Shown here piece by piece: positions 1-1,855 of a DNA stretch of 1,855 nt (its first letter is position 1; each line of letters opens with the position of its first letter). Location of the stretch: sequence record OR845648.1; one strand, written 5' to 3'. The stretch is from Escherichia phage ECO95 1-6-1. The position numbers and the translations under genes were made by a program. The notes beneath the pieces were generated by a model. It did no database searches and was not told the origin of the DNA. It saw only the letters and a list, made by a program, of their open reading frames with translations.

Positions 1-284
1 GAGTAACCTCGGTGTGCGGTTGTATGCCTGCTGTGGATTGCTGCTGTGTCCTGCTTATCCACAACATTTTGCGCACGGTTATGTGGACAAAATACCTGGT
101 TACCCAGGCCGTGCCGGCACGTTAACCGGGCTGCATCCGATGCAAGTGTGTCGCTGTCGCCGGCCTCCTCACCCGGTCACGTTTCGTCGTTCCTCCTCCA
201 CGCGCTGCGGCTTCGGGGCCGCACCTGCATTCGTATGCGGTCGCCCGGTTACAGGTGCGGCACGGCCTGATGGAGGCCGCATGT
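1..284 (+). promoter_or_regulatory. Structured non-coding region upstream of the 308-aa gene; possible second ssDNA-promoter-like element or regulatory leader
   Basis: Inverted repeats: TCCACA 58-63 / TGTGGA 83-88; CCTGG 95-99 / CCAGG 104-108; perfect 12-bp palindrome CGTGCCGGCACG 110-121; TGCGGC 206-211 / GCCGCA 218-223; CGGCC 263-267 / GGCCG 275-279. The only ORF here (14..286) has no RBS and an Arg/Cys/Pro-rich low-complexity translation typical of GC-rich non-coding DNA. Confidence 0.3.
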
Positions 285-292
285 GAGAGGAG
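285..292 (+). promoter_or_regulatory. Ribosome-binding site for the 308-aa CDS
   Basis: GAGAGGAG, 7 nt upstream of ATG at 300. Confidence 0.7.
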
Positions 293-299
293 AATTCCC

Positions 300-1226
300 A
301 TGCCAAACTGGTGCTCGAATCGTATGTATTTTTCTGGTGAACCAGCACAGATCGCTGAGATTAAACGACTGGCCAGCGGTGCAGTCACACCGCTTTATCG
401 CCGCGCCACAAATGAAGGTATTCAGCTGTTTCTGGCCGGAAGTGCCGGACTTCTGCAGACCACTGAAGATGTGCGGTTTGAACCATGCCCCGGACTGACG
501 GCTGCCGGGCGTGGCGTTGTATCGCCGGAGAATATCGCGTTCACCCGCTGGCTGACACACCTGCAGGACGGTGTACTTCTGGATGAGCAAAACTGCCTGA
601 TGCTGCATGAACTCTGGCTGCAGAGCGGTACTGGCCGGCGTCGCTGGGAAGAATTACCGGATGATGCCAGGGAAAGCATTACCGCTCTTTTCACCGCAAA
701 AAGAGGTGACTGGTGCGACATCTGGAGTAACGAGGATGTATCTGTGTGGTGGAACCGTCTGTGTGACAACGTCCTGCCGGAAAAAACCATGCCGTTTGAC
801 CTGCTGACGGTTCTGTCCACTCGCCTGGATGTTGAAGTGAATGGCTTTAACGGTGGTGTTCTGAACGGTGTTCCTTCTGCATATCACTGGTATACGGAAC
901 AGTATGGCGTGAAGTGGCCTTGTGGGTATGAGGTGAATATCAGCAGTCAGGGAGACAACTTCATTCAGGTTGATTTCGACACGCCGTGGTGTCAGCCGGA
1001 AAGCGACGTTATTGCAGAATTAAGCCGCCGTTTCAGTTGCACACTGGAGCACTGGTATGCCGAGCAGGGCTGCAATTTCTGTGGCTGGCAGCGATATGAG
1101 CGTGGAGAGCTTGTTGATGTCCTGTGGGGGGAACTGGAATGGTCTTCCCCGACAGATGACGATGAGCTGCCGGAAGTCACCGGACCTGCGTGGATTGTCG
1201 ACAAGGTGGCGCATTACGGTGGATGA
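300..1226 (+). CDS. Hypothetical protein, 308 aa, acidic and Trp/Cys-rich, function unknown; candidate anti-defence protein
   Basis: Long ORF in the supplied track (255..1226). I prefer the internal ATG at 300-302 because a strong Shine-Dalgarno GAGAGGAG sits at 285-292, 7 nt upstream; the ATG at 255 has no comparable RBS. TGA stop at 1224-1226. No competing ORF of similar length on either strand. Protein begins MPNWCSNRMYFSGEP and ends in an acidic tail SSPTDDDELPEV. Confidence 0.8.
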   Translation: MPNWCSNRMYFSGEPAQIAEIKRLASGAVTPLYRRATNEGIQLFLAGSAGLLQTTEDVRFEPCPGLTAAGRGVVSPENIAFTRWLTHLQDGVLLDEQNCLMLHELWLQSGTGRRRWEELPDDARESITALFTAKRGDWCDIWSNEDVSVWWNRLCDNVLPEKTMPFDLLTVLSTRLDVEVNGFNGGVLNGVPSAYHWYTEQYGVKWPCGYEVNISSQGDNFIQVDFDTPWCQPESDVIAELSRRFSCTLEHWYAEQGCNFCGWQRYERGELVDVLWGELEWSSPTDDDELPEVTGPAWIVDKVAHYGG

Positions 1227-1236
1227 ATTCTGACGG

Positions 1237-1267
1237 AGACGGGCGGGCAACCGCCCGTTTCTTTTCC
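1237..1267 (+). terminator. Rho-independent terminator of the 308-aa gene
   Basis: Perfect 8-bp GC-rich stem ACGGGCGG (1239-1246) / CCGCCCGT (1251-1258) around a GCAA tetraloop (1247-1250), followed by the T-rich tract TTTCTTTTCC (1258-1267). Begins 11 nt after the stop codon. Confidence 0.65.
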
Positions 1268-1610
1268 GGTAAAGGATGTCGCCGGGCTCCTCTTTTTACT
1301 GCGCCGGCTGACGCGGCGCGGCAGGAACGCTGCCTGTGGTCAGTGTCCCGCGTCCGGCGGGCACGGGACGGGCGCTTTTACCGCTCCCGGCTGGCACCGG
1401 TGACAGTGTACGCCAGCCCGTCGCCCTTTTCTGATGAACGCCCTTCAAGCCGCTTTCGCGGCATAGCCTTGCCGTCAAAAAGACGACGGCTGCGATATTC
1501 CACGGTCGGCCTGACCCGTTACCGGACGCGGTGAACAGCCCACAGGCCGCGGGGAACGGGCGCCACAGGGGCGCCCTCCCGGTGCCCTCTGTAAGAGAAG
1601 GAGTGCTGTT
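1268..1610 (+). promoter_or_regulatory. GC-rich hairpin-dense intergenic element; candidate ssDNA promoter (Frpo/ssi-like) or structured leader upstream of the methyltransferase
   Basis: No credible ORF with an RBS. Successive inverted repeats: GCGCCG 1301-1306 / CGGCGC 1314-1319; GGCAG 1320-1324 / CTGCC 1330-1334; GTCCCG 1345-1350 / CGGGAC 1364-1369; GCCGC 1449-1453 / GCGGC 1458-1462 (loop TTTC); GCCGTC 1471-1476 / GACGGC 1485-1490; GGGCGCC 1558-1564 / GGCGCCC 1570-1576. GC content is visibly higher than in the flanking coding sequence. Confidence 0.4.
1596..1603 (+). promoter_or_regulatory. Ribosome-binding site for the methyltransferase CDS
   Basis: AGAAGGAG, with the AAGGAG core 7 nt upstream of ATG at 1611. 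Confidence 0.75.
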
Positions 1611-1855
1611 ATGTCCCGTTTTATCCAGGGTGACTGCGTGCGTGTTATGGCCACGATTCCGGGCAATGGTGTCGATTTCATCCTCACCGACCCGCCATAT
1701 CTCGTCGGTTTCCGTGACCGTCAGGGGCGTACCATCGCCGGCGATAAAACCGATGAATGGCTGCAACCGGCCTGTAATGAAATGTACCGCGTGCTGAAAA
1801 AAGATGCGCTGATGGTGAGCTTCTATGGCTGGAACCGCGTCGATCGCTTTATGGC
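1611..1855 (+). CDS. DNA methyltransferase (N6-adenine or N4-cytosine, beta-class-like motif order), N-terminal 81 codons only; 3' end outside window
   Basis: ATG at 1611-1613 preceded by SD AAGGAG at 1598-1603 (7-nt spacing). Translation MSRFIQGDCVRVMATIPGNGVDFILTDPPYLVGFRDRQGRTIAGDKTDEWLQPACNEMYRVLKKDALMVSFYGWNRVDRFMA is open to the window end. DPPY (nt 1689-1700) is the catalytic motif IV of amino-methyltransferases; its position near the N-terminus fits the beta-class order. Absent from the ORF track only because no stop codon occurs in the window. Confidence 0.85.
   Translation, partial: MSRFIQGDCVRVMATIPGNGVDFILTDPPYLVGFRDRQGRTIAGDKTDEWLQPACNEMYRVLKKDALMVSFYGWNRVDRFM

Follow-up and report, generated by a model that had tools for sequence, protein, structure and literature searches.

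A Published Class 3 Promoter and a Shortened Class 2 Homologue at the Distal End of the Leading Region of F-like Conjugative Plasmids

Single-Stranded DNA Promoters of Conjugative Plasmids

Wen et al. (NAR 2025, PMC12672017) studied the plasmid pESBL and describe six zygotically induced operons, each located behind a hairpin of the transferred strand, with transcription starts determined by 5′ rapid amplification of cDNA ends (RACE). The paper sorts the hairpins into class 1 (Frpo/ssi), class 2 (5′ of klcA and ardA) and class 3 (5′ of M.EcoGIX), and states conservation of classes 2 and 3 in the F plasmid. For the class 3 hairpin it gives both a start mapped by 5′ RACE and zygotic induction seen by RNA sequencing (RNA-seq). 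Fraikin et al. (bioRxiv 2026.01.09.698686) named the F promoters ssp1a, ssp1b, ssp2, and ssp3, and described four operons with their own single-stranded DNA (ssDNA) promoter each. Here we analyze a stretch of 1,855 nucleotides (nt) from the sequence record OR845648.1 (Escherichia phage ECO95 1-6-1), hereafter the window, in which two genes are each preceded by a structured element: element 1 in front of a DUF1281 gene and element 2 in front of a DNA methylase gene. Element 2 is the already known promoter ssp3, and we propose element 1, a shortened relative of ssp2, as a further, weaker, previously undescribed ssDNA promoter.

One comparison is class 1, Frpo/ssi (Frpo1, Frpo2, ssi1-3; Masai & Arai 1997; Couturier et al. 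2023), which follows the same principle: the −35 and −10 boxes are reconstituted by a hairpin of the transferred strand. Activity confined to ssDNA, location in the leading region and a place 5′ of zygotically induced genes are the features that the two elements of the window would have in common with class 1. The difference is that blastn (word size 7) detects no similarity of either element to the three Frpo copies of pSFO157. Elements 1 and 2 show no mutual similarity in this search either, and so do not represent two copies of a common repeat.

The Window in the Plasmid Leading Region

The window (1-1855) is 98.4% identical to positions 52556-54410 of the F plasmid (NC_002483). In a nucleotide comparison, at least 5000 Enterobacteriaceae plasmids, mostly conjugative, match it; among the matches listed, the highest identity, 98.9% over the full length, is that of the pSFO157/pO157-type IncF plasmids. 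Positions in other plasmids are given below with locus labels: L001 for pSFO157, L002 for F, L004 for pESBL, and L014 for pE94-2. A protein search of genome contigs with the DUF1281 protein yielded five loci; the DUF1281 plasmid contexts covered are those of near-identical plasmids, to the exclusion of distant ones (Pantoea, Yersinia).

In F, the window is found directly after the sopC repeats, ~17 kb from oriT, and its positions 1-11 are the sopC flank. Both in pSFO157 and in F, sopA/sopB/sopC flank it on the 5′ side. On the 3′ side, the remainder of the methylase operon is followed on the same strand by an antirestriction gene, ssb, a ParB-like gene, psiB, hok, and a DUF932 gene, and then by oriT and traM/traJ/traY. 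The IncI1 plasmid pESBL carries the same module between dinI-umuDC and nikA/nikB. In all three plasmids, the module lies between oriT and the maintenance/umuDC boundary, on the first-transferred side, which is the placement of a leading region. A preliminary description, made from the letters of the window, had expected an anti-defence island of a conjugative element with mobile-element hallmarks in its flanks. The hallmarks are there (oriT/tra, ssb, psiB, and hok in pSFO157 and F, nikA/nikB in pESBL), and so is the conjugative setting, but an anti-defence function is documented for the methylase only (PMC7736820). The window is the distal end of the leading region of an F-like conjugative plasmid, and its two cassettes are the farthest from oriT.

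In conjugation, the nicked strand is transferred with its 5′ end first. Because it enters in this way and leads with this region, the minus strand of the window is the transferred strand. The DUF1281 and methylase genes run in the direction of ssb, psiB, and hok, towards oriT; therefore, both are read from the transferred strand as the template, which settles the relation between transfer and gene orientation that the preliminary description had singled out for checking. This rule of orientation, with the transferred strand as the template, has also been published for ssb, psiB, and the methylase (PMC7736820 among the sources).

Element 2 and the Class 3 Promoter ssp3

Element 2 occupies positions 1227-1610 of the window, directly 5′ of the methylase gene. 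Its main hairpin at 1328-1551 (minus strand) is assigned by the fold, the pair table and the identity to the class 3 hairpin (ssp3) of pESBL. Element 2 is 96.1% identical over 380 nt to the pESBL hairpin 5′ of M.EcoGIX, at the same position, and 98% identical to its F homologue. Over the elements of these two plasmids together, the identity ranges from 96 to 99%. Nothing material distinguishes it from ssp3: the small number of substitutions and 1-nt indels fall within loops and the apical part. Judged by this identity and its position, element 2 is the published class 3 ssDNA promoter ssp3. Taken jointly, this identity and the leading-region context are very probably correct.

In 13 distinct sequences, the basal 26-bp stem is invariant but for one unpaired cell. 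Covariation among these orthologues, which hardly vary, is uninformative: it amounts to one compensatory pair of 123, and most measures do not exceed those of shuffles. A small hairpin at 1552-1580, between the main hairpin and the Shine-Dalgarno (SD) site, appears as a helix in the 13-sequence alignment, and its pair 1562/1572 switches between G-C and A-T among the plasmids (AU in six, GC in five, other in two). The best −10 candidate of element 2, TACACT (1410->1405), falls in the internal loop 1403-1410/1495-1500. The best pair of boxes, CAGAAA-N17-TACACT, has 7 of 12 consensus matches; this is a weak match that we do not claim to be the correct one. The start is predicted near 1504 (+).

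The leading region of pESBL was scanned, at a 20-nt step, with the settings of Wen et al. (300-nt windows, DNA parameters, transferred strand, cut-off −75 kcal/mol). Exactly six loci are below −75 kcal/mol, including element 2 at −90.5 kcal/mol, located where the account of Wen et al. puts it. For some coding windows of pESBL (L004 5120-5419, 6220-6519, 10460-10759), the transferred-strand energy is −69 to −72 kcal/mol, not far from this cut-off.

In most plasmids, RefSeq places the coding sequence (CDS) of a 'hypothetical protein' of 101-103 amino acids (aa) across element 2 (window 1190-1534; L001 21230-21535; L004 4395-4706). The substitutions in this open reading frame (ORF) are spread 8:8:8 over the codon positions, 1-nt indels occur in several plasmids, and in half of them the frame ends after 57 codons. 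A small-protein reading of element 2 was rejected on these three grounds. The 'hypothetical protein' is spurious and not a gene, and the annotation should be removed from thousands of RefSeq plasmids.

Element 1, a Shortened Homologue of ssp2

The preliminary description had placed 300-380 bp of GC-rich, hairpin-dense DNA before each gene. The GC content is indeed high, 67-68% in the two hairpins vs. 54% in the CDS, and the folds are strong. The region 1-299 as ssDNA folds at −67 kcal/mol, with z-scores against shuffles of −3.6 (minus strand) and −4.1 (plus strand); the region 1227-1610 folds at −106 kcal/mol (z −4.9) as the minus strand and at −102 kcal/mol (z −3.6) as the plus strand. However, each upstream region is dominated by one long imperfect hairpin rather than by many small ones, and only ~165 nt of the first region form the hairpin. 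The corresponding inverted repeats are 105-131/243-269 for element 1 and 1328-1357/1523-1552 for element 2. A search of the window against Rfam returned a chance match only (Erse, 16 bits vs. a gathering score of 138).

Element 1 is a 165-nt imperfect hairpin at 105-269 (minus strand) that is supported by its inverted repeat, profile matches, covariation and conservation. It folds at −50.3 kcal/mol (z −4.0). The SD site (285-292) and then the ATG (300) follow the hairpin base at 269. Element 1 can be aligned with the class 2 hairpins (klcA/ardA). Profile hidden Markov models (HMMs) of the two arms were built from eight family members, element 1 being excluded: ssp2 of pSFO157, two pESBL hairpins (those of klcA and ardA), two IncFII elements, and three hairpins listed in the supplement of Samuel et al. 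(Frpo'4, Frpo*1, and Frpo*3). When run with nhmmer on three leading regions, the 3′-arm profile matches the minus strand of the window from 174 to 108 over its full length (E = 1.6e-8, 30.6 bits), and the 5′-arm profile from 266 to 206 (E = 0.004). Besides the known class 2 copies, the search of the three leading regions found solely weak plus-strand cross-matches to the opposite arms of the same hairpins.

The orthologues of element 1 hardly vary; therefore, the structural evidence is taken from diverged paralogues. The RNAalifold consensus of the family has 44 pairs, and 93% of its cells are paired vs. 30-40% when the partners are slid. Compensatory changes occur in 16 of the 44 consensus pairs; shuffles give 7.9 ± 1.7 (none of 500 reaches 16), and the slid controls 2-5. 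The alignment behind these figures consists of six sequences only, three of them close to one another.

The promoter-like arm of element 1 has a candidate −35 box TTGCAT (145->140), a 15-nt spacer and a candidate −10 box TAACGT (124->119), the middle of which is located in an internal loop. The boxes sit at the family-homologous place. The −35 is that of ssp2, the spacer is 15 nt in both, and the −10 retains T1, A2, and T6, i.e., three of six consensus matches. All nine family members carry, in the gene-distal arm, a −35 with TTG, a spacer of 14-15 nt and a −10 of the form TAnnnT at an internal loop; TAAGAT, TAAGGT, and TACAGT are the variants found besides the TAACGT of element 1. As read from the sequence, the gene-proximal arm has no −10 at the corresponding place, hence the promoter can exist solely in the folded minus strand. 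In that form it is directed into the gene, whereas in the duplex the same hexamers are directed away from it. From the geometry of the hairpin, the start is predicted near 262 (+), ~38 nt before the ATG.

The closest described relative is the class 2 promoter ssp2, located 5′ of klcA/ardB and ardA (Wen et al. 2025; Fraikin et al. bioRxiv 2026; PMC13478746). Both basal arms are common to the two, as are the −35 TTGCAT, a GCCCGG-TA block, the TAnnnT −10 in an internal loop and a CACGGC stem. ssp2 is ~240 nt long, has the −10 TAAGAT and folds at about −79 kcal/mol; element 1 is ~165 nt long, lacks the apical third, has the −10 TAACGT and folds at −50 kcal/mol. Unlike ssp2, element 1 precedes a DUF1281 gene, and it is known from its sequence, whereas ssp2 is a validated promoter and a replication roadblock. 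Short family hairpins of ~180 nt, the low-certainty candidates Frpo*1 and Frpo*3, come from an island of an insect-gut metagenome (Samuel et al., Nature 2024, Supplementary file 4). Like element 1, they contain TTG followed by TAAGGT or TACAGT and can be aligned along both arms, but they belong to a different element and host, and their sequence has diverged. By sequence and structure, element 1 is a shortened homologue of ssp2. It is not described as a promoter in the literature examined, and its core TTGCATCGGATGCAGCCCGG is absent, on either strand, from the supplementary files of Samuel et al.

Conservation and Exchange of the Hairpins

Variation was measured in a sample of 11 plasmids (IncF, IncI1, IncK, and IncZ) with sopC, umuDC, IS26 or ISEc53 as upstream neighbors. 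In the element 1 hairpin, 3 of 166 columns are variable (1.8%). The figure is 16 of 83 (19%) for the pre-region at 12-94, 118 of 927 (12.7%) for the DUF1281 CDS, 62 of 309 (20%) for its third codon positions and 62 of 245 (25%) for the methylase N-terminus. Over the codon positions, the variable columns are distributed 27:29:62 in the DUF1281 CDS and 13:10:38 in the methylase N-terminus. The whole of element 1 (95-299) has 6 variable columns of 205, far fewer than the third codon positions (Fisher's test, P = 1.6e-9). Identity over 95-299 is at least 99% in 4166 of 4899 plasmid records; the encoded DUF1281 protein is mostly 90-95% identical among the matches listed.

The two hairpin types have also changed places. 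A hairpin of the element 1 type (TTGCAT-N15-TACAGT) is located directly 5′ of the methylase gene in the K. pneumoniae plasmid pKPC2_020030 (L016 1440-1767) and in an IncFII plasmid of S. salamae (L017). Conversely, in Escherichia sp. MOD1-EC7003 (NZ_PTRE01000133.1, L008 2666-3010), a DUF1281 paralogue stands immediately behind a class 3 hairpin, the two being fused at a junction between the hairpin and the SD site. Each hairpin type therefore occurs where the promoter of the other gene is expected. This shows that the hairpins behave as exchangeable modules. The pKPC2_020030 and S. salamae loci are without a DUF1281 gene, and divergent SRAP/umuDC genes adjoin them.

Proposed Mechanism and Its Weighing

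During conjugation, the minus strand would enter the recipient in single-stranded form and fold into a long imperfect hairpin upstream of each gene. The stem of the hairpin would imitate a duplex sigma-70 promoter, in which the gene-distal arm serves as the non-template strand with the −35 and −10 boxes and the gene-proximal arm as the template, and RNA polymerase would exit from the hairpin base into the gene. With the −10 in a mismatched internal loop, the promoter would be present only in the folded strand and lost upon synthesis of the complementary strand. Cassette 1 would comprise the hairpin 105-269, acting as a shortened homologue of ssp2, and the DUF1281 gene, and end at the terminator 1235-1266. 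In cassette 2, the ssp3 hairpin 1328-1551 would drive the methylase that protects the incoming DNA from restriction. Initiation at element 1, both start sites and any anti-defence role of DUF1281 are parts of this scheme that we infer.

The preliminary description had assigned each cassette an ssDNA promoter of its own, which agrees with published work in the case of element 2; for element 1, the role is suggested by homology, boxes and conservation. The two-cassette explanation as a whole is reasonably probable. That element 1 is an active ssDNA promoter seems somewhat likelier than the contrary.

Several points weigh against this explanation, most of them concerning element 1. Its −10 TAACGT matches the consensus at three of six positions, and its spacer is 15 nt. 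Its best 300-nt window, at −69.4 kcal/mol, lies above the cut-off of −75 kcal/mol and is equalled by some coding windows, and thermodynamics alone does not single it out; since the energy falls short of the cut-off, a hairpin scan would miss the element. The folding energies of the two strands of element 1 are nearly equal, and covariation cannot separate DNA from RNA, nor one strand from the other. As for expression, the RNA-seq text of Wen et al. has six induced operons, does not name DUF1281 among them and indicates that not all leading genes are induced (PMC12672017); a strong induction of DUF1281 would probably have been noticed. Four operons were counted in F (bioRxiv 2026.01.09.698686), and DUF1281 is frameshifted in that plasmid. 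Finally, the boxes proposed for element 2 (class 3) are the best of weak matches.

The main rival to the promoter reading of element 1 is a role in DNA processing; the two roles are not exclusive, and ssp2 has both. Element 1 would in this case mainly mark the distal edge of the leading region for DNA processing, either as an ssp2-like hairpin at which complementary-strand synthesis is stalled or positioned or, together with a DnaA-box hairpin at 28-67, as a priming site of the A-site type, and DUF1281 would be expressed weakly or otherwise. The homologue ssp2 is a replication roadblock, and all leading-region loci, including those distal to ssp2, convert later than the distance from oriT predicts (bioRxiv 2026.01.09.698686). 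By its geometry, element 1 would be the first hairpin for synthesis coming from the later-entering side. The near-total invariance of element 1 seems more than a weak promoter would need, and the absence of DUF1281 from the induced operons reported in the text of PMC12672017 points in the same direction. However, no family member has lost the TTG, the TAnnnT or the internal loop at the −10, and a hairpin of the element 1 type is always directly followed by an SD site and a gene, which in other plasmids can be the methylase gene. On balance, a mainly DNA-processing function is rather unlikely.

The priming variant of this explanation depends on the pre-region (12-94), which is ~88% conserved between IncF and IncI-type plasmids. 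It contains an exact R1-type DnaA-box 9-mer, TTATCCACA, at 55-63 (+), inside a small hairpin of the minus strand (~28-38/57-67) just upstream of element 1. The box is kept in 11 of 12 plasmid loci. A second box-like site, TTGTCCACA, is found at 90->82 on the minus strand, and its pESBL counterpart is TTATTCACA. The A-site of the ABC primosome (Masai et al. 1990, Masai & Arai 1995, cited in PMC6127211) is likewise an ssDNA hairpin with the R1 DnaA box TTATCCACA, and A-site hairpins bearing that box load DnaB on ssDNA (PMC6127211). The hairpin of the window, known from sequence alone, differs in that only part of the box is in the stem, the stem is short (−7.6 kcal/mol) and the match is statistically undistinctive: the number of DnaA boxes within the window is not above chance. 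In pE94-2 (L014), the pre-region is absent and the hairpin of element 1 is retained, so the pre-region is not an obligatory part of the cassette.

One may also combine the two roles. Element 1 would then be an overlooked fifth (F-like plasmids) or seventh (pESBL) single-strand-active element with a double duty at the distal border of the leading region, as a weak DUF1281 promoter and as a gate, assisted by the DnaA-box hairpin, that determines the place and time at which complementary-strand synthesis enters that region; its near-absolute conservation would be due to this double duty. If true, such a gate would set how long all zygotic promoters stay single-stranded. We regard this combination as unlikely.

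Another explanation is that element 1 is a decayed, non-functional class 2 copy, the conservation of which comes from the recent spread or recombination of one allele. It is indeed shorter than ssp2 and has a weaker −10, its activity is not reported in the preprint (bioRxiv 2026.01.09.698686) or in the text of PMC12672017, and most of the plasmid collection consists of closely related Enterobacteriaceae plasmids. However, while the flanks have diverged by 5-12%, the 205 nt remain 99-100% identical across IncF, IncI1, IncK, and IncZ plasmids with different upstream neighbors, and in a decaying relic one would expect no less variation than at third codon positions. A decayed copy is thus quite improbable.

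Lastly, the structured regions could act as RNA or coding sequence expressed from the duplex, with element 2 as a small gene, element 1 as a 5′ untranslated region behind a conventional upstream promoter and possibly a single operon, for which the RefSeq CDS over element 2, the equally good folding of the hairpins on the plus strand and a weak duplex match, TTGCCG-N19-GATATT at 1469-1499, might be cited, but this is very improbable in view of the substitution pattern, indels and truncation of that ORF, the strong terminator between the genes, the lack of an Rfam family here and of a sigma-70 match of at least 9/12, and the expression of the methylase, which is off in established hosts but induced upon entry (PMC7736820; PMC12672017).

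Genes, Terminator and Other Features

The gene of cassette 1 (300-1226, +) encodes a DUF1281/Api92-like protein of 308 aa (yfdA/yccB/yubB family) with the Pfam domains PF06924 (3e-49) and PF18406 (DUF1281_C, 8e-16). The protein matches the structural-genomics protein Api92 (PDB 2IJR, 8.5e-50). NCBIfam gives no match to it, and the matching PHROG families carry no function. DUF1281 is listed as a prevalent uncharacterized gene family with 1949 members (PMC11541004, Supplementary file 3). The gene of cassette 2 (1611-1855, +; the first 81 codons, cut by the end of the window) encodes an N6/N4 DNA adenine methylase of the M.EcoGIX family, and the full-length pSFO157 homologue is 91% identical to M.EcoGIX. 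The latter is a single-strand-specific methylase that shields the incoming plasmid from restriction (PMC7736820).

The SD sites are GAGAGGAG at 285-292 (+) for the DUF1281 gene and AAGGAG at 1598-1603 (+) for the methylase gene, each 7 nt before the ATG. The intrinsic terminator after the DUF1281 gene (1235-1266, +) has a GC-rich 12-bp stem (1235-1246/1251-1262) with a GCAA loop, and its descending arm enters a U-rich stretch ending at 1266. A simple terminator scan missed it; it was revealed by the RNA fold (−24 kcal/mol, z −3.2), and the stem is kept in 12 of 13 distinct sequences. Because this terminator stands between them, the two genes are separate cassettes. A consensus scan found no sigma-70 duplex promoter with at least 9 of 12 matches anywhere in the window. 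The preliminary description was right that both genes lie on the same strand with a strong SD site each, and that they are independent cassettes rather than an operon. Overall, it proved largely right; the architecture itself is already published, and element 1 is the new item.

In the F reference, an A-run (window 781 / L002 7337) is one A shorter, which frameshifts the DUF1281 gene (yfdA), and no CDS is listed at this position in F; the frameshift is either a real pseudogene or an old sequencing error. Maps of F may ignore the DUF1281 gene because it is frameshifted there. In p746 (L010, IncI-gamma/K1), an opposite-strand group II intron reverse transcriptase replaces or interrupts, after 2610, the methylase gene that follows element 2. 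Three Frpo-type (class 1) repeat copies are present in pSFO157 (L001 25478-26072, 28759-29354, 34062-34658), and two are named in F. The minus-strand 'hypothetical proteins' at L001 25257-25772 and 28628-29071 overlap two of these copies and are probably spurious too, like the one over element 2.

Implications for Plasmid Establishment

Which plasmid genes are expressed within the first minutes of arrival, ahead of the action of host defences, is decided by the ssDNA promoters, which are therefore central to the establishment of resistance plasmids. The current maps include four of them in F and six in pESBL. If the promoter role of element 1 is true, it would extend the zygotic regulon and flag DUF1281/yfdA, one of the commonest uncharacterized genes of leading regions, as an early-acting factor. 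It would also show that scans based on an energy threshold miss short members of the family.

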